From the NCBI GenBank assembly GCA_963729835.1, contig CAVSQF010000039.1:514801-578800 (forward strand): DNA of 64,000 nt, in the 5' to 3' direction. The stretch's first letter is position 1. Each line of letters begins with the position of its first letter. The notes below the pieces were generated by a model that saw nothing but the letters and a program-made list of their open reading frames with translations, was not told the DNA's origin and did not search any database. The stretch is from an uncultured delta proteobacterium (lineage in GTDB: Bacteria; Desulfobacterota; Binatia; HRBIN30). The translations under genes were made by a program, and so were the position numbers. Positions 3,224 through 56,477 of this stretch are shown piece after piece.

Positions 3224-3597
3224 GGAAGCACCGCCTCTTGGTCTTTCCGCGGACGCATCATTCCGAGCCGTCCACGCGCGATTGTTTCCAGGCGATCAGG
3301 GGCGCTGAGCGTCGCCGCTTCCACTCTCAGCGCATGCCGCTCCTGCTCGACTTTTTCGACCACTTGTCGAGTCGATGACAAGCCATAGCCGAAGTCGCGA
3401 ACCTTTAGCCGCAGCCAGACGTGTCCGAGCGCAATGAGAACGCCGACGCAGACGAAGACGACGAGCCAGACGATCAAATGCCGCAGCTCAAGGCTGCGGT
3501 CGGCCGCGACGTTCGCCGGGCAGAGCCATGCGGGTGAGCCGCGCAAGTCGTTGCGTTGTCCCGGCGCGGCGCTGCGACTTAGCGAAACTGGCACCAT
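3220..3597 (-). CDS. ftsL: Cell division protein FtsL-like (small bitopic membrane protein)
   Basis: 125 aa with a single TM helix (LIVWLVVFVCVGVLIALG) followed by a coiled-coil-like region. Positioned between mraZ and ftsI and overlapping ftsI by 4 nt. Confidence 0.55.
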   Translation of the reverse strand: MVPVSLSRSAAPGQRNDLRGSPAWLCPANVAADRSLELRHLIVWLVVFVCVGVLIALGHVWLRLKVRDFGYGLSSTRQVVEKVEQERHALRVEAATLSAPDRLETIARGRLGMMRPRKDQEAVLP

Positions 3598-3599
3598 CT

Positions 3600-4052
3600 C
3601 TACAGCCCCAATTCGGAAAAACTCTCCACAAACCCTTGCTCCGCCTCACCGAGGAACTGGTTCCATTGGTCGCGATCCCAAATGTGAAACTTTGCCAATG
3701 CTGATGCAAATACTATGTCTTTCTTTATCCCAGCATAATCTCTTAGGAGCTGTGGTAGGAGTATTCTTCCTTGCTTGTCTATAATGCAGTCATGGGCTCT
3801 GGAAATATAGAAAGCAAGAAACCGCATGACCTTCAAATCGAATTGCGGTCGGGCGCTCATCGACTCTTCGAGCCGCGCCCACACAGCTTGCGGATACACA
3901 TGGAGACAGCGCGCCGTGCCCATCGTGAAGTTCGTGATCACGACGCGATCATCATTGCTGGCTTGCAGAACCTCGCGGAACCGCAGCGGCACACTGACGC
4001 GCCCTTTGTCGTCTATGGTATGCTCAAAGGTGCCGCGAAAGATGTATTCCAT
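3600..4052 (-). CDS. mraZ: Transcriptional regulator MraZ
   Basis: 150 aa with the duplicated MraZ fold signature (FRGTFEHTIDDKGRVSVP ... IDKQGRILLP). It is the first gene of the dcw cluster. Confidence 0.9.
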   Translation of the reverse strand: MEYIFRGTFEHTIDDKGRVSVPLRFREVLQASNDDRVVITNFTMGTARCLHVYPQAVWARLEESMSARPQFDLKVMRFLAFYISRAHDCIIDKQGRILLPQLLRDYAGIKKDIVFASALAKFHIWDRDQWNQFLGEAEQGFVESFSELGL

Positions 4053-4549: not shown

Positions 4550-5296
4550 CTACCGTGAGGGCTCTGCGGGTTCTAGAGGCTCGGGGCACCAAAACAGAAT
4601 GCGGTGGCAATTCGGGCAGAGCCGGACATCGCGTGTCCGTTGCAGCTCGTTGAAAAACTGCGGTGGCACATGCATGTAACATCCCTGGCACGTGCCGTTG
4701 CGCACTTCGACGACCGCGCTCCCACCGCGGCGTTCGAATATCTGCTCATACTTCTGCCGCAGGTCGATATCGAGCAACGCGGCGATCTCATCCCGGTGGT
4801 GGCGTTCCTGGCTCACCTCGGCGGTCAGTTGCTCGATGCGCATCCGATATTCACCGTCTTTCTGAAGCAACGCGGCCTCCAGTTCGGCAAGGCGGTCTTC
4901 CGCTTCGCCCGCAGCCGCTGCAACCGTCTCCAGCGACTCCAGGGTATACAGGACTGCTTCTTCCAGCTGCTCGTTCGCTTCTTTGCCCACTTCGATCTCA
5001 CGCCGAAGAGCCTGCAACTCCTTTTCGTTACGCACGCGGTTCAGGCGCATGCGGCGATCGGTCATTTTGGCGCCTTCGGATTCCAGCTGGGCTTCCAGCT
5101 CTCGGCGGCGCGTGTCGAGGGTGTCGCGTTCGGCTTGCGCCGCTCGCGTCGCCTCACGCTGTGCGAGCAACCGACTTTCGAGCGCCGCGATTTCGGCTTC
5201 CAGTGTCTGCCGCAGCTCCGTCTTCTCGTGCAACTGGCGATCGAGGGCTTGCAGCTGGGCCAAGCGGGCAATTGGGGATTCGGCTGAGCTATCCAA
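4550..5296 (-). CDS. Zinc-ribbon/coiled-coil protein (COG1579/DUF164-like)
   Basis: 248 aa. A long coiled-coil is followed by a C-terminal C4 zinc ribbon (CQGCYMHVPPQ...CPNCHRIL). Confidence 0.7.
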   Translation of the reverse strand: MDSSAESPIARLAQLQALDRQLHEKTELRQTLEAEIAALESRLLAQREATRAAQAERDTLDTRRRELEAQLESEGAKMTDRRMRLNRVRNEKELQALRREIEVGKEANEQLEEAVLYTLESLETVAAAAGEAEDRLAELEAALLQKDGEYRMRIEQLTAEVSQERHHRDEIAALLDIDLRQKYEQIFERRGGSAVVEVRNGTCQGCYMHVPPQFFNELQRTRDVRLCPNCHRILFWCPEPLEPAEPSR

Positions 5297-11653: not shown

Positions 11654-11712
11654 GGAATCCCGCCACCGCCGACAAAGCACAAAGCAGCGCCTTCGCCGCC
11701 TTCCGAGCCCCC

Positions 11713-26248: not shown

Positions 26249-28486
26249 GCGACGCCCAAAAAGAAACCGACGCACGAATCGCGATCGACGATATGCTCCG
26301 GCAGGCACGCTGGGACCCGGCGGACAAGTCACAGGTGTTGACAGAGTTCACCGTTAAGCAGGCGTCTGGACTTGTCAGTGAGGAAGACGGCTTTGCGGGT
26401 ATCATCCATAGCGACGGCGATGACATGCCGACCGGACGCGCCGACTACGTGCTGCTGGATCAACGCGGACGTCCGCTTGCCGTTGTTGAAGCCAAACGCA
26501 CAGCTATCCAGCCCTACACCGCCAAGCAGCAGGTCCTTCCCTACGCCAAGAGCATCGGCGCGCCGTTCATCTTTCTAACAACGGCGAGGTGATCTACTTC
26601 TGGGACTACCCAACGACGACGCGCGCATCGTCAACTCGTTCTACTCCCGGCGCGACCTCGAACGTCTGGTCGAGATGCGGGCAGACACAGAAGCCGCTGG
26701 CGACGATTCCGATTCCCGAGCTATTACCTGAGGCAGGGCGAGACAGCGCGCGGTCCGCCCGTACCAGAAAGAAGCCATGCGCGCCCTCGACCAAGCCGTC
26801 GAACTGGGCAAGCGCCGCTTCCTCATCGAGCTGCCGACCGGCACCGGGAAGACGGACCTGATCTGCCTCTACCTCAAGCGCCTCATCAGAGCCGGCCGCG
26901 CTGAGCGCGTCTTTTTCTTGGTGGACCGCGAGCAACTCGCCAAGCAAGCGCTGGAGGCGATGCAAGACATCCTCAACCGGCACGGCAGCTATTGGCTCAA
27001 GCCGGGCATGATTCGGCAGGAGCAACAGATTACGGTCTGCCTGCTCCAGACGATGATCGGCCGCTATCAGGAGTTCACCAGCGGCTACTTCGATGTGGTC
27101 ATCGCCGATGAGTGCCATCGTTCCATCTATGGTGCCTGGCAGACGGCACTTACCCATTTCGACGCGCTCCACATCGGCCTGACTGCCACCCCGGCTGCCT
27201 ACATTGAACGGAACACCTTCCAGCTTCTATCACTGCAAGGACAGCGCAGCCGGACTTCTCCTACCCGATTCAAGAAGCTTTCGAAGAGGAGTACCTGGTC
27301 CCCTACAAGTTCGCCACCGGCATCACCGAGCTACTCGCTGAGGGTGCAGACGTGGACGATGAGCACTACGACCCAGCCGAGTTCGAGCGCAAATGGACCA
27401 ACGAGGACACCAACCGCAAGATGATGGAGGAGTTCGACCGGCTGGCCTGGGAGAACTACAAGGAGCTGGCGCCCGACCAGAAAGTTGGCCCGGGCAAGGC
27501 CATCGTCTTTGCGATCACCAAGCACCACGCCGCTCGGCTGGCGCAGTATCTCAACGAACTGCATCCCGGAGCAGAAAGGGCGCTACGCCGAAGTGATCAC
27601 CTCCGACGTTGCCAACGCCGAGGATCTCATCCGGCGCTTCAAACAGGAAGACTACCCGCAGATCGCCGTCAGCGTGGGCATGCTGGACACCGGTTTCGAT
27701 TGCCGCGAGGTGCTGCATCTGGTCATGTGCCGGCGCGTCCGCAGCCCGATCCTCTACCAGCAGATGCGCGGCCGCGGCACGCGCACCGCACCGCACATCG
27801 GCAAAGAGAAGTTCGTCATCTACGACTTCTTCGGCAATCACGAGTTTTTCAACGACAGCGACACGGACATCTTCGTCGGCACTGGTACTGGCCACGTGCC
27901 CAGCCCGCGGCCACCCCGACCGCCCGGCGGCCGTAACCTCATCGAGCTGGGTCTGGAGGACGAGTGGCTGCAAGCGGTCACCTACGTTGAAGTCGGGCCG
28001 CAAGGCGAGCGCATCGACAAGCAAGACTACGTAAGTCGACTGGGAGCAGGCCATCCGCGCTGCGGCGAAGGATGACGAGGTCGCTGCGTAAGGTGCGAGG
28101 CGGGTATCGAGCTAACGGCGGAAGAAGAGCAACGGCTTGCGGACAAGCTCAATCGTCCGGAGCACTACTTCAACGAAGAAAACCTGCGGCGCGCTTATCG
28201 CAACCCGGGCGGAACGTTGGTTGACTTCATCAGGCACGCGCTGGGAACGGCCAAGGTGAAGAGCCGCGAGGAAGTGGTCACCGAAGATTTCCGCGCGTGG
28301 CTCGTCTCCAAGAACCTCACGCCGGATCAGGCGCAGTACCTGGCCTTGCTCAAGAACCGCGGTATAGTGCGCGGCAAGGTGGACGTCGACGACCTCTTCC
28401 AGCCACCACTGTCGATTCTGAACGCTGCCAGCTCGGCGTCGAGCTGTTCGGCGAGAAGGGCCTGCAGGAGATCGTCACCGAAATGA
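26245..28486 (+). pseudogene. hsdR: Type I restriction enzyme R subunit HsdR, heavily degraded
   Basis: HsdR homology (nuclease N-terminus ADYVLLDQRGRPLAVVEAKR; helicase motifs I TGTGKT, II DECH, III TATP; DUF3387-like C-terminus) is spread over at least 6 ORF fragments in all three frames. Lesions mapped by frame tracking: 1-nt deletions near 26578 and 26611; an in-frame TGA at 26729; frameshifts near 27245, 27568, 28052/28098 (a compensating pair) and 28430. Confidence 0.8.
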
Positions 28487-30188
28487 ACGAGGCGATCTTC
28501 GCCAGAAGGCGCATAGCGGCGATGAACCAAGCCCTGCGCAGAAAGCTCGACCACATCACCGACATCCTGTGGGCTGGTGGGGTTACCAATCCGGTGACTT
28601 ACATCGAGCAGATTTCTTACCTCATTTACCTCAAGCTGCTCGACGAGGAGGAGTCGGTCCGTGAGCTGCAGGCGCGGCTCACCGGGAGGCGCGGCAACGG
28701 TAACAGCAAGAGTCTCTTTCCGCAGCAGGCTGAGCGCTACCGTTGGTCGAAGTGGCGCTTCAAGAGCGGCGAGGAGCTGCGCAACTTCGTGCGCGACGAG
28801 GTCTTCCCCTACATGGGCTCGCTGGTGCGGGAAGAACCGCAGATCGCCGAGTACTTCCGCGACGCGGTCTTGGAGATCGTCGACCCCAACGTGCTCAAGC
28901 AAGTCATTGATGAACTCGACAGCATCGACTTCCGCAAGCTCGGCACCGACGTGAAGGGCGACATCTTCGAGTATCTGCTCACTCATCTCGGCCAGTCGGC
29001 GCTCAACGGCCAGTTCCGCACGCCGCGGCAGATCCGCACGATGATGGTGGCGATGCTCGATCCCGATCTCGGCGACACGATTTTCGATCCGGCGTGACGG
29101 CACTGCAGGGTTCCTCATCGACTCCGTTGAACACATCCTGGCCAAGTACTCCGAGAACGCCGCAGGAGGTGCCGATCTACGGCGAGGAGTGGCTGGAGAA
29201 GCGCGGGCAAGCAATTGAAGAAGTCAAGGCGCAGATCCCCACGCTGCAGACGTATCGGAAGGGCGCCGGCGAAAAGATCCCGGACTGGGAGCTGCTGGAG
29301 CGGTCCATCTACGGCATCGACGTTTCGCGGCAGATGATGCGCATCGGCATGATGAACCTGGTCCTGCACGGCATCCGGCACGCGCAGGTGAAGCGCGCCA
29401 ACAGTCTCTCTGAGATGGGCGGGCTGAGTGAAGAGGACCTGCGGCGGCGCTACAAGGTCATTCTGTCCAACCCGCCGTTCGCCGGCGTGCTTCCGAGGGA
29501 ATCGATCCGCAAGGATCTGGGGACCAGCTCGAAGAAGAGCGAGCTACTGTTCCTCGGGCTGATGATGCAATCGCTCGCGCCGGGCGGCCGTTGCGCCGTG
29601 ATCGTACCCGAAGGGCTGCTGTTTGGCTCAACGTCGGCGCACGTCGAGCTCCGCCGCAAGCTCGTCGAAGAGTTCGAGTTACTCGCGGTCGTCTCACTGC
29701 CCGCGGGTGTTTTCAAACCTTACGCCGGAGTAAAAACGGGTGTCCTGGTGTTTCGCAGACCAGTGACCACTGATCACTCGTCACTGACCACTGCTCGTAA
29801 AGTCTGGTTCTACGAAATCCACGCCGACGGCTACGACCCCGACAAGATCACCGGCGGCGGCCGGCCGGAGACGCCTGAGCGGAATGACATCCCGAATCTT
29901 CTATCGCAATGGGCGACATACAAAGCATCCGGCTTCCGCGAACCGCCTGGGCATGAAGCCAACTCCCTTCTCAGTCCGGACGACTCCGCAGCGAGTTGCT
30001 GGTGGGCAACTGTCGGACTCGTTGCTGAGAACGACTACAATCTCGCGGCTGGGCGCTACAAGCCACAGGTCGCTGAGAAGGCGCCGGAAGAGAAACCCGA
30101 ACAGGTCGTCCAAGAGGTCCTCTCGATCGAGCGCGAGATTGAAGTGGGACTGGAACGACTGCTCAGGGATATTGAGACCGCACGGTAG
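28483..30188 (+). pseudogene. hsdM: Type I R-M methyltransferase HsdM, apparently disrupted by two +1 frameshifts
   Basis: The HsdM_N region and motif I (GQFRTPRQI...IFDPA) read in one frame up to a TGA at 29095. DPACGTAGFLIDSVEHIL continues only after deleting one base. The downstream part (YGIDVSRQMMRIGMMNLVLHGI, NPPF) is in the third frame, which requires a second shift near 29170-29215. Confidence 0.6.
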
Positions 30189-47738: not shown

Positions 47739-48962
47739 TTAGAACCTCTCGGCCGCATGCAGCGCGAGGACTTCGTTGGTGCCGTCCTCGATCAACGACG
47801 CCCGGGCATCGCGCAGCAGTTTCTCAATCGGGTACTCCTGGCTCAACCCGTTGCCGCCGAACACCTGGAGCGCTTCCGTCGCCACTTCGAAGGCCGTCTG
47901 TGTCGAAGTCACCTTCGAGGCGATGGCGTAGTGCACGGCCGGGAAGCTCCCCGGAGCGGCGCCAAAGAACGGGTTGTTGACGATGTTGTAGAGCACCACG
48001 CGGCGGTTCAGGGAGCGGGCGGCCTCGATCTTCCGGAACATCTCGAACAGCTTCATCTTGATGGTTTGGTGCTGAATGATTGGGACTCCTCCTTGCACGC
48101 GCTGCTTCGCGTACTCCACCGCCATCTCGAACGCTGCCCGGGCGCACCCCACGAAGGCGGCCCCCATGTACCCGTTAGCCGTACACAGCGTCAGCTCCAT
48201 CCCCATGGCGTACATCTCCGGGGGAATAACCATGTGCGTGATCGGGACGCGCACGTCGTCGAAGAACACCTCCCCTTGCGGCAGCGGCCGCTGGCCGAGT
48301 TTCTCGAGAGGTTTGCCGTGCGACACCCCCGGCGCCGTGAGATCCACCAGCAGCACGCCGCCGCCCGTGACCCCGTCACCATTGTCCACGGCGGTGTACA
48401 ACGCCGCCGCTTCAGCAACGGGACCGTTCGACACCCATGCCGCCTTCTGGCCGGTGATGACGTAGTAGTCGCCATCGAGGCGGGCGATGCAGTTCGGCTT
48501 GAACAAACCGGGTCGCCGGCTGCTGCCGCTCAAATCGATTGAATCGCTGCCGTGATCCGGCTCCGTGATGGCCCAACAGCCGACCTTGCCCAACGGGAAG
48601 GCCGCCATCAGGTCCGGGTTCTGCGTGGTCTGCGCCAGCATCGCGGGAAACTCGCCGGCACCGAGGCTGATCGCCAGCCCGGCATCGCCCCATCCCAGCT
48701 CCTCCGTCGCGATGCAGGTCAGCCGGGCGAGCTGCACGGGCGTGATCTCGGAGCCCGGGCCCGCCAGCATGCGGATGCCCAGCTCGTCCCACTTGTTGTG
48801 CACCTCCCACAAGAGCGAATCGTCGGCGATGACCTCGTCGGCCGAAAGGCGATCCAACGCCTGCCCGGCGGGGCGCATGACTTCCTCCGCAAACCGATGC
48901 ACGAGGTCGCGAATATTCCGTTCTTCTTCCGAAAGATCGAAGTCGATGTCTTGTAGCACCAT
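47739..48962 (-). CDS. Acyl-CoA dehydrogenase family protein
   Basis: 407 aa with ACAD N/M/C domains (…GCWAITEPDHGSD…, …YMGAAFVGCARAAFE…, …FGGNGLSQEYPIEKLLRDA…). Confidence 0.85.
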   Translation of the reverse strand: MVLQDIDFDLSEEERNIRDLVHRFAEEVMRPAGQALDRLSADEVIADDSLLWEVHNKWDELGIRMLAGPGSEITPVQLARLTCIATEELGWGDAGLAISLGAGEFPAMLAQTTQNPDLMAAFPLGKVGCWAITEPDHGSDSIDLSGSSRRPGLFKPNCIARLDGDYYVITGQKAAWVSNGPVAEAAALYTAVDNGDGVTGGGVLLVDLTAPGVSHGKPLEKLGQRPLPQGEVFFDDVRVPITHMVIPPEMYAMGMELTLCTANGYMGAAFVGCARAAFEMAVEYAKQRVQGGVPIIQHQTIKMKLFEMFRKIEAARSLNRRVVLYNIVNNPFFGAAPGSFPAVHYAIASKVTSTQTAFEVATEALQVFGGNGLSQEYPIEKLLRDARASLIEDGTNEVLALHAAERF

Positions 48963-49094
48963 GAGCCGTCCCTCCGTGAGCGCTGTGCTCGCTGGACTAT
49001 GCCCCCGCAGCAGCCGCGGGACAAGTGAATTTGGTGCCGGGTTATGAAAGGGCGCACTAGGGGCGGTTCGCGAACCGTCCCCACGACGACCCGC

Positions 49095-49874
<780 letters not shown>

Positions 49875-49910
49875 CGTTGGCTTATAGCATATGGCTTATG
49901 GCTTATGGCC
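49875..49910. repeat. Tandem heptamer repeats (CCATAAG/CTTATGG)n in the hisA-hisF junction
   Basis: Minus sense reads CCATAAGCCATAAGCCATATGCTATAAGCCAACG-ATG. It supplies the HKP-stop of hisA and stop codons in all three frames. Confidence 0.7.
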
Positions 49911-50648
49911 AAGATCGACCTGGCCACCCCGGGCGATTCGGATGGCCTCCGGCAAACGTACGGCGCCGGTGTACAACGCGCGTCCAACGATCACCGCGTC
50001 GATCCCTGCAATACCACAGTCCCGCAACGCGATGATGTCTGCCAGCGAGCCGACACCACCGGACGCGGTGACTGGAATGGTGATCGCCTCGGCGATGGCG
50101 CGCGTTGCGGCGACATTGACCCCGTGCTGCGTGCCGTCACGGCTGATGTCGGTATGGATCACGCGGCATGCCCCCAGCGCCTCCGCCTGATGTGCCAACG
50201 CGACGGCGGTGGTATCGCTGGTTTGCAACCAACCGTGTACCGCCACCTTGCCGTCACGCGCGTCGATCCCCACAGCAACGTGTCCGGGAAAACGGCGGCA
50301 GGCCTCGCCAACGATGTCCGGATCGGCCAGCGCTGCCGTACCGAAAATCACCCGATCAGCACCGAGATCGAGCAACTCGGCCGCGCGCGCGACGCTACGC
50401 ACCCCGCCACCGACTTCAATCGGAATCGCCAGGCCACGACACAGCCTGGCGACCGCCGCACCGTTGACGGATGTACCGGCGACGGCGCCGTCGAGATCAA
50501 CGAGGTGCAGGTATTGCGCTCCCTCGGCTACCCAGCGCTGCCCGACGGCGAGCGGATCATCGCTGTAGACGGTCTCCGCGTTCATGTCGCCGCGCAGCAA
50601 GCGCACGCACTTGCCGCCTTTCAAGTCGATGGCCGGGACGATCAGCAT
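49896..50648 (-). CDS. hisA: 1-(5-phosphoribosyl)-5-[(5-phosphoribosylamino)methylideneamino]imidazole-4-carboxamide isomerase HisA
   Basis: MLIVPAIDLKGGKCVRL... is the canonical HisA. Ends ...GHKP. Confidence 0.9.
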   Translation of the reverse strand: MLIVPAIDLKGGKCVRLLRGDMNAETVYSDDPLAVGQRWVAEGAQYLHLVDLDGAVAGTSVNGAAVARLCRGLAIPIEVGGGVRSVARAAELLDLGADRVIFGTAALADPDIVGEACRRFPGHVAVGIDARDGKVAVHGWLQTSDTTAVALAHQAEALGACRVIHTDISRDGTQHGVNVAATRAIAEAITIPVTASGGVGSLADIIALRDCGIAGIDAVIVGRALYTGAVRLPEAIRIARGGQVDLGHKP

Positions 50649-50683
50649 TTGGCTTGTGGCTTATGGCTTATGGCTTGTGGCAT
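50649..50683. repeat. Tandem heptamer repeats (CCAYAAG)n in the hisH-hisA junction
   Basis: Minus sense reads CACAAGCCATAAGCCATAAGCCACAAGCCAA-ATG. Confidence 0.7.
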
Positions 50684-51290
50684 ATCGCCCGAAGTTCGCC
50701 AGGATCTTCAATCCCACGCGCTGGCTCTTCTCCGGGTGATACTGGGTCGCGAAGACGTTGTCGCGCGCGACCGCGGAAGCGAACTCGAACCCATATTCCG
50801 TGCTGGTTGCCGTGAGCGACGGATCAGCGGGCACGACGTAGTAGGAATGCACGAAATACACGAAGGCGCCGTTCTCGATGCCCTGCAGGTGCGGCACGTC
50901 TTGGTACTTGCGGATCTGATTCCATCCCATGTGCGGCACCTTGAGGGTTGCGCTTTCCGGAAAGCGCACAACGCGACCCGGGAATATCCCCAAGCCCGGC
51001 ACCGGACCGAACTCCTCGCTCTCGTCAAAGAGCAGCTGCATCCCGAGACAGATTCCCAGGAACGGCGTGCCGCGGCGGATCACGTGGCGGACGGTCTCCA
51101 CCAAGCCATAGCCGCGCAGATTGTCCATGCACGCGCCGAATGCGCCCACCCCCGGGAGCACCACCCCCACAGCCGCGGTGATGCGGTCCGGATCGCGGGT
51201 CACCTCCGCCGCGAAGCCCACCCGTTCGAGCCCCTTCTGCACCGAGCGCAGATTCCCCATCCCGTAGTCGATGATGGCGATGGTTGGCAT
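50661..51290 (-). CDS. hisH: Imidazole glycerol phosphate synthase glutaminase subunit HisH
   Basis: MPTIAIIDYGMGNLRSV... class I glutamine amidotransferase with the catalytic Cys in GICLGMQLL. Ends ...SHKP. Confidence 0.9.
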   Translation of the reverse strand: MPTIAIIDYGMGNLRSVQKGLERVGFAAEVTRDPDRITAAVGVVLPGVGAFGACMDNLRGYGLVETVRHVIRRGTPFLGICLGMQLLFDESEEFGPVPGLGIFPGRVVRFPESATLKVPHMGWNQIRKYQDVPHLQGIENGAFVYFVHSYYVVPADPSLTATSTEYGFEFASAVARDNVFATQYHPEKSQRVGLKILANFGRYATSHKP

Positions 51291-51310
51291 ATAGCTTATG
51301 GCTTATGGCC
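51291..51310. repeat. Tandem heptamer repeats (CCATAAG)2 immediately upstream of hisH
   Basis: Minus sense reads GGCCATAAGCCATAAGCTAT-ATG. Confidence 0.65.
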
Positions 51311-51329
51311 AGACTTTTTTGAAGCCAGA

Positions 51330-51400
51330 GTAAGGCCGGCGGCGCGGGCCGTCCTCGGCATTAGCAAACGGTGCAGCGCGCCGGATTCGGCCGGCCTTAC
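51330..51400. repeat. Long GC-rich stem-loop (11-bp perfect outer stem GUAAGGCCGGC/GCCGGCCUUAC with inner GGCGCG/CGCGCC stem)
   Basis: Seen directly in sequence. Lies in the 385-nt hisB-hisH spacer and is not followed by a U-tract on either strand. Confidence 0.5.
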
Positions 51401-51456
51401 GCCCTTCGAGCACTTAACACTAAACCGCCAGCAATCACGATGACGCATCGGATCCA

Positions 51457-51622
51457 GGTTCCTCTCCCTCCGGAAGAGGTCAGGTGAGGGGATTAGATAA
51501 TGCCGAAGACCACCATCTTCACCGAGTGAACGAACAGCACTCATCGTGCTACCCCCAATAAGGTGACTTCGTCCGACATCCAATCCCCTCATCCTGACCT
51601 TCTCCCGGAGGGAGAAGGAACC
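51457..51622. repeat. MITE-like element: ~40-bp imperfect terminal inverted repeats flanking an ~85-bp core
   Basis: Left arm ggttcctctccctccggaagaggtcaggtgaggggattag. Right arm caatcccctcatcctgaccttctcccggagggagaaggaacc, which is the reverse complement with a few mismatches. Confidence 0.55.
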
Positions 51623-51679
51623 CAGGAGATACCCCGTCGTCACTACGAGATGCGGCACTAACGCACACGCCATAAGCAG

Positions 51680-52345
51680 CTACAAGCTTCCTTTTGTCGA
51701 CGGCACGCCCCGCACGCGCGGGTCGATCTGGGTGGCCTCGTCGAGGGCGCGCGCCAACGCCTTGAAAGCCGCTTCAATGATGTGGTGCGGATTGCGGCCT
51801 TGCACTTGGTGCAGGTGCAGGTTCATGGCTGCCTGATTCGCGAAGGCCAGCAGGAAATCGTGCACCAGCTCGGTGTCGAAGTCGCCGACGCGGGCTTGCT
51901 TGATGCGCAGGTTGTAGGCGAGAAACGGGCGGCCGCTCAGATCGATGACCGCATTGACCAGCGCCTCATCGAGCGGACAGGCGGCGTTGCCGAAGCGCCG
52001 GATGCCGACCTTCTCCGCCAACGCTTCGCGCAACGCTTGACCAAGCGCCAGACCAATATCCTCGACCGTGTGATGCTGGTCGACCTCCAAATCGCCGCTG
52101 GCCTGTACCGTGAGGTCGAAAAAGCCGTGGCGTGCAAAGATCTCCAGCATGTGATCGAGGAAGGGGACGCCGGTGTGGATCTGCGCCTCTCCGCGGCCGT
52201 CGATGTCGAGCTCGACGGCGATGTCGGTCTCCTTCGTCGTACGCACCACGCGGGCATGCCGCCCGCTGGGGCGCGGCCGCGCGACGAGGGCGCGCCGCTC
52301 CGCCGACGTGCCGCGATCACTCCGCGTTTTCGATCGTCCCATTGC
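51680..52345 (-). CDS. hisB: Imidazoleglycerol-phosphate dehydratase HisB
   Basis: RVVRTTKETDIAVELDIDG...HHTVEDIGLALG...HHIIEAAFKALARAL IGPD motifs. Start placed at MGRSK; the track ORF extends to 52438. Confidence 0.8.
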   Translation of the reverse strand, partial: AMGRSKTRSDRGTSAERRALVARPRPSGRHARVVRTTKETDIAVELDIDGRGEAQIHTGVPFLDHMLEIFARHGFFDLTVQASGDLEVDQHHTVEDIGLALGQALREALAEKVGIRRFGNAACPLDEALVNAVIDLSGRPFLAYNLRIKQARVGDFDTELVHDFLLAFANQAAMNLHLHQVQGRNPHHIIEAAFKALARALDEATQIDPRVRGVPSTKGSL

Positions 52346-53666
52346 GTCCTCCTTGTTTGCGGCGCGGCGCCGGTGTGAAGCGACAGCGCACCGCCGCCGC
52401 ATGCGCCTCGTACCCTTCCAATGTCGCCAGACGCACAATTGCGGGCGCCAGCCGCCGCAAGCCGGCGCGCGTTGCAGAGACCACGCTCGTACGTTTCACG
52501 AAGTCATACACCCCGAGCGGCGAGAAAAAGCGCGCCGTACCACCCGTCGGCAACACGTGATTCGGCCCCGCGAGATAATCTCCAAGCGGCGCCGGCGCGA
52601 ACGGTCCGAGAAACACCGCCCCGGCGTTGCGGATGCGGCGCACCCAACGTTGCGCGTCCTTCACCATCAGTTCCAGGTGCTCCGGAGCCACTTGATCCGC
52701 GAGCGCCACGGCCTCCTCGAGATCACGCACGATCACCAACGCACCGCGGCGGCGCAGCACGCGCGCCACATCTGCACGCCGCGGCAATACTTTCAGTTGC
52801 GCATCGATCTCGGCCTGGACCGCCAGCGCCACATCCCGAGCGGGCGTCAGCAACACGGCGCATTCATCCCCGCTGCCGTGCTCGGCCTGCGCCAGCAAGT
52901 CGGCCGCGACATGCGCGGCGGTGGCGGTCTCGTCCGCAATGACCAGCACCTCGCTGGGGCCGGCGATGGCGTCGATGTCGACGGTGCCGTAGACGATTCT
53001 CTTCGCCGCTTGTACGTACGCGTTGCCCGGCCCAACGATCTTGTCGACGCGCGCGATCGTCTGTGTCCCAAATGCCAACGCCGCCACCGCCTGGGCGCCG
53101 CCGATGCGAAACACCGTGCGCACGCCGGCGATCGCCGCCGCCGCCAACACCGCGGGGTTCATCCCGCCGGCTCCCGCAGGCGACACCATGACCACCTCAC
53201 GCACCCCCGCAACGCGCGCCGGAATGGCGTTCATCAAGACCGACGACGGATAGGCCGCATGCCCACCGGGCACATACAATCCAACACGATCGAGCGGCGT
53301 GATTTGCTGCCCGAGCCGTAACCCAGTCGCATCGCGATAGCTCCACGACTTCATCCGCTGGCGGCGATGGAAGGCGGTAATGCGCCGGGCGGCAAACCGC
53401 AGCGCCTGCAACGCCTGCGGGGCCACGGCACGCGGCGCGGCGCGCAGCTCATCCTCACTCACCCGCAGCTGCTCCGGCGACAGGCGCACGCGGTCGTAAC
53501 GCCGTGTGAACTCGATGACCGCCGCATCACCGCGCCGCCGCACGGCATCGACGATCCGCCGCGCTTGCAGATCGATCGCGGCGTTCCCCCCGCTCCCGCG
53601 CTCGCGGATTGCCGCGAACCGGCGGGCGAAATCCGCATCCCGCGTCGACAGTACTCGTACCAACAT
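52317..53666 (-). CDS. hisD: Histidinol dehydrogenase HisD
   Basis: 449 aa. HisD motifs with NAD and zinc ligands (…GPGNAYV…, …AEHGSGDE…). Confidence 0.9.
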   Translation of the reverse strand: MLVRVLSTRDADFARRFAAIRERGSGGNAAIDLQARRIVDAVRRRGDAAVIEFTRRYDRVRLSPEQLRVSEDELRAAPRAVAPQALQALRFAARRITAFHRRQRMKSWSYRDATGLRLGQQITPLDRVGLYVPGGHAAYPSSVLMNAIPARVAGVREVVMVSPAGAGGMNPAVLAAAAIAGVRTVFRIGGAQAVAALAFGTQTIARVDKIVGPGNAYVQAAKRIVYGTVDIDAIAGPSEVLVIADETATAAHVAADLLAQAEHGSGDECAVLLTPARDVALAVQAEIDAQLKVLPRRADVARVLRRRGALVIVRDLEEAVALADQVAPEHLELMVKDAQRWVRRIRNAGAVFLGPFAPAPLGDYLAGPNHVLPTGGTARFFSPLGVYDFVKRTSVVSATRAGLRRLAPAIVRLATLEGYEAHAAAVRCRFTPAPRRKQGGRNGTIENAE

Positions 53667-56410: not shown

Positions 56411-56477
56411 AATCGTGAATCGTGTTCGTGCTCGTGTTCGTGAGCCGAGCACGATTCACCAGCACGAGCCACGATTA

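Follow-up and report, generated by a model that had tools for sequence, protein, structure and literature searches.

Heptamer arrays at the hisH, hisA and hisF junctions

The 64,000-nt stretch of DNA analysed here (the window; positions 514,801 to 578,800 of contig CAVSQF010000039.1, assembly GCA_963729835.1) comes from an uncultured delta proteobacterium of the lineage HRBIN30 (Desulfobacterota; Binatia) and carries a histidine biosynthesis operon, three of whose gene junctions are occupied by tandem repeats of a 7-nt unit, typically CCATAAG. The gene order on the minus strand is prfA-prmC-hisD-hisB-hisH-hisA-hisF, with a spacer of 389 nt between hisB and hisH, followed by an acyl-CoA dehydrogenase gene; each gene has Pfam support. 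Arrays and his genes are read throughout in the sense direction of the latter (minus strand), and coordinates are window positions unless preceded by a locus label (L and a number). The features are collected in Table 1.

Table 1. Features of the his operon in the window, and PF05635 loci in other sequences
Feature	Position	Strand	Evidence and remarks
hisB, imidazoleglycerol-phosphate dehydratase	51680..52342	-	Pfam; strong Shine-Dalgarno sequence
hisB stop and inverted (antisense) arm, CTGCTTATGGCgtgtg	51664..51682	-	stop TAG 51682-51680, then the arm; pairs with array 1
Structured insert between the arms, about 355 nt	51309..51663	-	long imperfect palindrome and a second hairpin
Array 1, sense arm 5' of hisH	51308-51288	-	CCATAAG CCATAAG CTATATG; hisH ATG 51290-51288 in the last unit
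hisH, glutamine amidotransferase	50661..51290	-	Pfam; C-terminus ...SHKP encoded by array 2
Array 2, hisH/hisA	50680-50646	-	CCACAAG CCATAAG CCATAAG CCACAAG CCAAATG; Tandem Repeats Finder and probe
Array 2 extended by the preceding unit (CGATATG)	50646..50687	-	
Codons in array 2	50663-50661; 50648-50646	-	hisH stop TAA; hisA ATG
hisA	49896..50648	-	Pfam; C-terminus ...GHKP encoded by array 3
Array 3, hisA/hisF	49908-49881	-	CCATAAG CCATAAG CCATATG CTATAAG, then CCAACGATG; 49872..49908 with CCAACGATG
Codons at array 3	49898-49896; 49874-49872	-	hisA stop TAA; hisF ATG
hisF	49095..49874	-	Pfam
PF05635 gene, sense-oriented	L396:3501-3869; L399:3501-3869; L400:3501-3872		relatives' his operons
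PF05635 loci bracketed by arrays	L126:2929-3435; L396-L400 (~3455-3910); L038:1-600; L094:1-500; L319:4490-5020; L362-L395; L401-L405		

A first reading of the locus, made from the sequence alone, had reported CCATAAG tandem repeats at the his junctions, and these are real. Tandem Repeats Finder assigns all three arrays a period of 7 and 3.6-5.1 copies. A two-unit probe, CCATAAGCCATAAG, applied with up to two mismatches, finds 8 matches in the 64-kb window against 0.11 expected, a number reached in none of 100 shuffles; all 8 fall inside the three his arrays, and the window has no other array of CCATAAG type. The repetitive nature of the sequence is all that would suggest an assembly or sequencing artefact, an explanation that the sequence-only reading had allowed for. 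Identical arrays are present in an independent Logan assembly of run ERR11594402 (L359), and homologous arrays are found in orthologous his operons on at least 7 contigs from other samples, which makes an artefact extremely improbable.

The arrays are intergenic, reaching into no more than the final codons of the open reading frame (ORF) upstream, and they contain the stop and start codons of the genes that they separate. HisH ends in ...GRYATSHKP and HisA in ...VDLGHKP, as had been noticed earlier, and both acquire the HKP tail because their stop codon is the TAA of a heptamer unit. The earlier claim of stops in all frames also holds: the unit includes a TAA and its length of 7 is not divisible by 3, so that a frame entering from upstream is closed within three units. 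For hisH and hisA, the start falls in register in the closing unit of the array, which has ATG in place of the AAG of other units, while the hisF ATG lies 6 nt beyond array 3. The distance from stop to start is 12 nt between hisH and hisA and 21 nt between hisA and hisF, so that the proposed spacing of 5-15 nt applies to the former junction and not to the latter. All 7 members of the 90% HisA cluster end in GHKP or GHMP, and a comparable tail is missing from most of the 120 best HisA homologues. On the opposite strand, the antisense unit CTTATGG is free of stop codons in every frame. This accounts for a shadow ORF of 645 aa (49506-51443, plus strand) that runs antisense through hisF, hisA, hisH and two of the arrays, and by which a gene call based on length was misled.

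Clear Shine-Dalgarno sequences precede many genes of the window. Initiation signals were compared by the energy of the anti-Shine-Dalgarno duplex and by the energy of local folding between -30 and +30 relative to the start. The duplex energy is -10.9 kcal/mol at hisB and -10.0 kcal/mol at the acyl-CoA dehydrogenase gene, and -1.5, +0.6 and +0.7 kcal/mol at hisH, hisA and hisF, respectively, in agreement with the earlier remark that these three genes have no obvious Shine-Dalgarno sequence. In the same order, the local folds amount to -14.8 and -12.8 kcal/mol and to -9.1, -7.9 and -7.5 kcal/mol. Random 60-mers from the window average -18.5 kcal/mol (standard deviation 5.3), with a 95th percentile of -10.4; thus the hisH, hisA and hisF starts, all of which fold more weakly than this value, have less structure than 95% of such stretches. 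Taken alone, the junction RNAs showed no significant structure (z between -0.1 and -1.65). The absence of Shine-Dalgarno pairing and the low structure, as predicted here, fit either Shine-Dalgarno-independent or coupled initiation, without proving either. A promoter scan from hisB to hisF returned no promoter-like site, with terminator-like sites at background level, and an Rfam scan of 48900-52400 gave only a chance-level radC match (E = 0.78). A his leader-peptide attenuator was considered and rejected: there is one CAU per reading frame, the junctions are internal, and neither significant local structure nor a terminator accompanies them.

Unit number varies among related strains, which is the comparison that the sequence-only reading had proposed. 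Before hisH, the window has 2 CCATAAG units and the ATG unit, where L001 and L126 have 3 and L360 has 5. The hisH/hisA array, 4 units and the ATG unit in the window, ranges from 3 (L360, L002) to 7 (L126), and in L001 and L125 it is split by an insert of ~150 nt made of REP-like hairpins. At hisA/hisF, the sister strains (89-93% HisA identity) have 4 units, as in the window, with substitutions. Among close strains, stop-to-start distances span 5 to about 185 nt. GC-rich hairpins of REP-like sequence (CCCCTCCTTGGTAAGGAGGGG and variants) lie beside or inside the arrays of several relatives (L001:4390-4430 and 5130-5215; L127:1990-2060 and 2800-2850; L360:75-100), and it is two of these that split the hisH/hisA array in L001 and L125.

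The arrays can be followed well beyond the sister strains. Units of the family C[CG]ATAAG occur at the same junctions in many relatives with 74-100% HisA identity, bearing out the suggestion of a lineage-specific junction motif. In the array-bearing relatives sequenced they end in the C[CG]ATATG start of hisH and hisA, and often of hisF too. Among variant units there is a bias toward C1, T4 and G7 that is mild and not decisive. At 69-80% HisA identity, relatives again have heptamers in tandem at these junctions, in some cases built from other units: GCGTAAG (L128), AAAGCGG (L129), AAGCCGC and CACCAGC (L130), and, together with their inverse, TTGAGAG/CTCTCAA (L131) and AATGTTT/AAACATT (L132). 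L003 and L133 have a degenerate CCATAAG type; in L003 (79% HisA identity) only a degenerate hisA/hisF array is left. In some relatives that lack arrays there (L003, L136), hisH and hisA overlap, and translational coupling at these junctions is therefore plausibly ancestral.

Variation in unit number between close relatives is also what would be expected of a contingency locus, and the sequence-only reading had raised phase-variable expression, in which slippage would switch hisH, hisA and hisF on and off or tune them as a 'rheostat'. Contingency-locus repeats are likewise tandem and differ in copy number between strains. Unlike them, the his arrays lie neither inside a reading frame nor between promoter hexamers, so that an on/off switch is not possible, and the scan found no promoter-like site. 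Since their position is between stop and start codons, a change in unit number alters spacing only; nor is there an obvious benefit in switching off a housekeeping biosynthetic operon. From their position, on/off phase variation is not supported, and a locus of this kind, the rheostat version included, is very unlikely.

Elsewhere in the window, on the plus strand, a heptamer array of GACCACT type (29758-29793, ~5-6 units) does lie within a coding region, that of the type I restriction-modification methylase gene hsdM, where one unit more or fewer would cause a frameshift. This gene (28297-30188) is broken into two ORFs by one extra base in the DPACGTGGFL motif near 29094 (GCG TGA CGG), and either is a pseudogene or contains a sequencing error.

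The hisB-hisH spacer and its PF05635 cassette in relatives

The spacer between hisB and hisH in the window has arms of both orientations. The unit that follows hisB had been taken for a partial direct copy of the repeat; it is instead an inverted unit, reading GCTTATGGC in the mRNA sense (51677-51669), and the inverted repeats I4/I7 link this post-hisB arm with array 1. The whole 389-nt spacer has a predicted fold of -211.5 kcal/mol (z = -9.55), and in the minimum-free-energy structure the closing stem pairs GCUUGUAGCUGCUUAUGGC, which includes the hisB stop, with GCCAUAAGCCAUAAGCUAUAUGC, which includes the hisH start. In predicted folds, an inverted-array clamp also closes the spacer of L001 (z = -4.1) and L126 (z = -4.8). 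The cargo held between the arms is unrelated among the window, L001 and L126. In the window, an ORF of 125 aa runs through the spacer; Pfam gives no match for it and 5.8 billion proteins include no homologue, so it is taken as non-coding.

The cargo of L126 is a gene for a 122-aa four-helix-bundle protein of the family PF05635 / TIGR02436, which lies antisense to the his genes (L126:2974-3339). A search with this protein returned homologues at 60-87% identity, and three of these, when fetched, led to five contigs of relatives (L396-L400) with the order murA-hisD-hisB-PF05635-hisH-hisA-hisF, in which the PF05635 gene has the same orientation as the his genes. A PF05635 gene thus lies between inverted arrays at the hisB-hisH site, in either orientation, in five sequenced relatives. 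In L396-L400, antisense units of TATCGC type follow the hisB stop, and the stop of the PF05635 gene lies inside sense units (GCGATAA or GCCATAA) that reach the hisH ATG after 5-36 nt. The hisH/hisA gap of these relatives consists of an antisense arm and a sense arm, with a predicted hairpin in 2 of the 3 relatives tested (z = -2.9, -4.3). The opposite orientation of the gene in L126 and in L396-L400 is what recombination between inverted arms would yield, and on this comparison the cassette may be invertible. The idea that the spacer of the window itself is a decayed PF05635 gene was rejected: hmmsearch, blastn and tblastx matched only the arrays.

The connection between PF05635 and heptamers extends far beyond the his operon. 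In the array loci that were fetched, all PF05635 genes found (L126, L038, L094, L319) are bracketed by heptamer arrays. Among 34 viral-contig loci picked by PF05635 homology alone, a period-7 array of at least 3 units lies within 250 nt upstream of the gene in 23 and downstream in 11. The density of such arrays is ~7-fold higher near the gene (32 in 16.8 kb) than further off (18 in 68.8 kb), and periods other than 7 account for 0-5 arrays near these genes. In a set of 25 non-redundant PF05635 loci, tandem heptamers were present upstream in 21 and reverse-complement tandems downstream in 13 (one of them weak), with downstream tandems of the same orientation essentially absent. The same arrangement occurs in Deinococcus wulumuqiensis, in an Anaerolineae genome, where the downstream array is of CCATNNG type, and in Muribaculaceae; in all, inverted heptamer flanks were seen in Deinococcus, Anaerolineae, Muribaculaceae, Flavobacteriales, Planctomycetota and viral contigs. 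Besides the his operon of relatives and the viral contigs, five bacterial phyla are represented. The flanking arrays are mostly inverted, and each locus has its own unit.

The converse does not hold. PF05635 genes were sought beside heptamer arrays in general and were found at 3 of ~120 genome array loci and 1 of ~150 viral array loci (~1-3%); the association runs from gene to arrays and not the reverse. PF05635 has been noted as similar to Avd, the accessory protein of diversity-generating retroelements (PMC10053308).

Heptamer repeats in other genomes

An exact 19-nt probe matched at least 120 stretches of CCATAAG repeats in species-representative genomes of many phyla. Among the matches listed, several genomes have multiple loci (11 in Victivallales RGIG7794, 6 in RGIG7578, 5 in a Planctomycetota and 4 in a Myxococcales metagenome-assembled genome), and the arrays are often contiguous with other heptamer arrays, inverted copies or GC-rich hairpins. 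Crude gene calls around 120 listed arrays place 28 between convergent genes, 22 between co-directional genes in the sense orientation, 14 likewise in the antisense orientation and 6 between divergent genes. The idea that CCATAAG arrays are generally sense-oriented and placed just 5' of starts was therefore dropped: these calls reveal no clear strand preference and a bias of ~2:1 toward gene 3' ends.

The dispersed arrays of Victivallales RGIG7794 (L037, L045, L063, L068, L075, L083, L086, L099, L103, L116, L123) and of Planctomycetota (L009, L029, L042, L085, L108) are typically followed by a GC-rich hairpin (e.g. GCCGCCTTCGGCGGC or GGCGCGCTGCGCGCGCC), array and hairpin resembling a composite repeat at gene 3' ends.

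Nor is CCATAAG a special heptamer. In viral contigs it gave 13 matches, compared with 8, 9 and 4 for three composition-matched heptamers, and it is the heptamer format that is special and not the unit itself. Tandem arrays of at least 3 units and at least 85% identity were counted by period: the window has 4 of period 7, and 99 kb of clade loci have 19, the latter number being no measure of genome-wide density because the loci were picked for carrying the his operon, and none of periods 8-12. Small heptamer arrays with other units were also seen at 11672-11686 and 56411-56424 of the window and at L001:11857-11877 and L003:3795-3820, those at 11672, in L001 and in L003 being intergenic; the units across these four sites are ACAAAGC, AATCGTG, AGCGACA and TCACGAG.

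These repeats have well-described counterparts. The STRR repeats of Mazel 1990 and the excess of heptamer repeats in many bacteria noted by Mrazek 2007 are both described here as they are summarised in PMC4679880 and PMC4692102; the GGGAATC heptamers of Xanthomonas and GGGGAYT heptamers of Nostoc were reported by Rehm 2015 (PMC4692102), and the genome of a marine Beggiatoaceae bacterium has TAACTGA direct repeats in 169 sets (MacGregor 2015, PMC4679880). The arrays in the window belong to this known heptanucleotide-repeat class (STRR, LSSR, TAACTGA type): they have a 7-nt head-to-tail unit, an intergenic site, a copy number that varies among relatives and a forward array at a start without a Shine-Dalgarno sequence. 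The TAACTGA repeats are the closest in layout. In them, too, the unit is 7 nt long and comes in sets of 2-6, for the most part intergenic and forward and ending just 5' of a start; they provide stops in all frames in the forward orientation, and so overlap only with the last codons of the upstream ORF; most genes downstream of them have no Shine-Dalgarno sequence; and related variants of the unit are scattered among the copies. The his arrays differ from them in unit and phylum, in forming inverted pairs that close hairpins or inserts, and in their tie to a PF05635 site. With LSSR and STRR repeats they share intergenic heptamers, the over-representation of heptamers relative to other unit lengths, a length that varies between close relatives and occasional inverted pairs; unlike these, the his unit is not G-rich, no quadruplex is possible, and the arrays hold stop and start codons within an operon.

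The TAACTGA unit, known from Beggiatoaceae and cyanobacteria, is strikingly common in the viral-contig collection, where arrays of 2.7 units matched at least 120 contigs (L239-L358), compared with 4-13 for CCATAAG and its three matched heptamers, often with several sets per contig.

Two further kinds of element bear comparison. The 23S rRNA intervening sequences (IVS) that encode PF05635 are, like the hisB-hisH inserts, small insertions with inverted repeats that form a predicted closing stem, and they carry the PF05635 ORF as cargo, as does this his site in relatives. However, the host here is an mRNA operon and not an rRNA, and the insert in the window has no PF05635 ORF. REP/BIME and MITE-type palindromes resemble the his arrays in their intercistronic or gene-3'-end sites and their hairpins, and GC-rich hairpins of REP-like type adjoin the arrays of relatives; they differ in that the arms at the his site are tandem heptamers, not a fixed palindrome, with no associated transposase known. 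In the literature searched here, we could not find a description of the inverted-arm arrangement, of the link between PF05635 and heptamer arrays, or of 23S rRNA IVS arms in the form of heptamer arrays.

Since heptamers are so common, it may be asked whether the his arrays need any special origin. They could be neutral slipped-strand repeats that arose on the spot in tolerant intercistronic DNA, with no relation to a cassette and no function, the codons simply lying where the repeats grew. Such an account suits the differences in unit number among strains, the presence of other heptamers at the same junctions in some relatives and of none in others, and the modest 13 matches of CCATAAG in viral contigs relative to the 4-9 of the matched heptamers. 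The dominance of heptamers among repeats of the his-operon loci (19 period-7 arrays and no period 8-12 arrays in 99 kb) is of a piece with it, as is the general excess of Mrazek 2007, again as summarised in the two papers above. However, one and the same unit recurs at three or four places in a span of 1.8 kb, in both orientations and as complementary arms, an arrangement that independent slippage cannot produce. Moreover, the unit family and the in-register start are kept across ~25% HisA divergence. A wholly neutral, local origin is thus rather unlikely.

Alternatively, the arrays could serve as binding sites in which each unit is read by one subunit of an oligomeric protein that binds nucleic acids and would control translation or processing at the junctions. 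Candidates are a PF05635/Avd-like protein and a ring protein of the HutP or TRAP kind, which would read NAG at intervals of 7 nt. The his arrays do present AAG every 7 nt, a recurrence that equals the spacing of HutP sites, and 3-7 units would suit a ring of subunits. No terminator that such a protein might override was found at the junctions, and HutP-like control was considered and has no clear support. A PF05635-like reader would be in keeping with the nearly constant flanking of PF05635 genes by arrays, each locus with its own unit, and a repeat-binding regulator has been proposed by MacGregor for TAACTGA repeats (PMC4679880). Against such a protein, the window has no PF05635 gene, the units differ so widely between loci that each protein would need to co-evolve with its own flanks, and the 120 listed CCATAAG arrays elsewhere show no strand preference. 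A binding-protein role seems less probable still than a neutral, local origin.

Origin and possible roles of the his arrays

The explanation that is somewhat favoured combines class, origin and function: the arrays are repeats of the STRR/LSSR/TAACTGA kind that would have started out as the arms of an element of hairpin or cassette type and would now serve as coupling linkers in place of Shine-Dalgarno sequences. Judged from their arrangement, they most likely began as such arms. Sense arms of hairpin-forming inverted heptamer pairs would have colonised the intercistronic gaps of the his operon in this clade, and the hisB-hisH pair would bracket a cassette site that is occupied by a PF05635 gene, in either orientation, in relatives and by the ~355-nt structured and apparently non-coding insert here. 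Differences in unit number and sequence among strains would then have come about by slipped-strand mispairing.

At hisH, hisA and hisF, the arrays put an A/U-rich, unpaired stretch in the place of a Shine-Dalgarno sequence. Termination-reinitiation or Shine-Dalgarno-independent initiation is therefore the probable route of translation for the three genes. In the hisB-hisH spacer, the antisense arm is predicted to pair the hisB stop region with the hisH start region; ribosomes ending hisB would open this stem, coupling hisB and hisH across 389 nt. Translational coupling, proposed in the sequence-only reading, is accordingly plausible as far as the layout goes: the lack of Shine-Dalgarno sequences, the low structure, the starts in the last units and the pairing by the inverted arm speak for it, and the stop-to-start distances of 5 to ~185 nt speak against.

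Several points weigh against this explanation. Because the stop-to-start distance varies so much, there is no conserved coupling geometry, and several relatives have no arrays at these junctions at all. The absence of strand preference and the 3'-end bias of CCATAAG arrays in other genomes suggest a DNA-level or neutral element and not a translation signal. A PF05635 gene was not found in the window by Pfam and profile searches and the insert has no similarity to one, so that a cassette origin of arrays 2 and 3 is drawn from relatives. Finally, every functional step is one that we infer, and a neutral present-day function is quite possible.

A broader proposal can be put forward more tentatively. 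Inverted heptamer arrays may be the cis arms of a widespread, undescribed element with a PF05635 (23S-rRNA-IVS / Avd-like) gene as cargo; the arms would form a long stem, would let the cargo invert and might be bound unit by unit by an oligomeric protein. The lone arrays at hisH/hisA and hisA/hisF would then be arms that were left behind or that spread.

The inverted-arm architecture, membership in the known heptamer class and the PF05635 cassette link all go beyond the sequence-only reading. Taken alone, the his arrays are one more case of intergenic heptamers, but a clear one, in which stop and start codons lie inside a polymorphic repeat and three consecutive genes of a housekeeping operon have no Shine-Dalgarno sequence. 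Their wider value lies in the relatives, where these arms enclose a PF05635 gene within the his operon, in one orientation or the other. If the broader proposal is true, it would provide an origin and a possible trans-acting partner for heptamer repeats, which have been unexplained since 1990, as well as a function for PF05635. Should the PF05635 link hold genome-wide, it would join two old puzzles: where heptamer repeats come from and what they do, and what function the IVS/four-helix-bundle proteins have.

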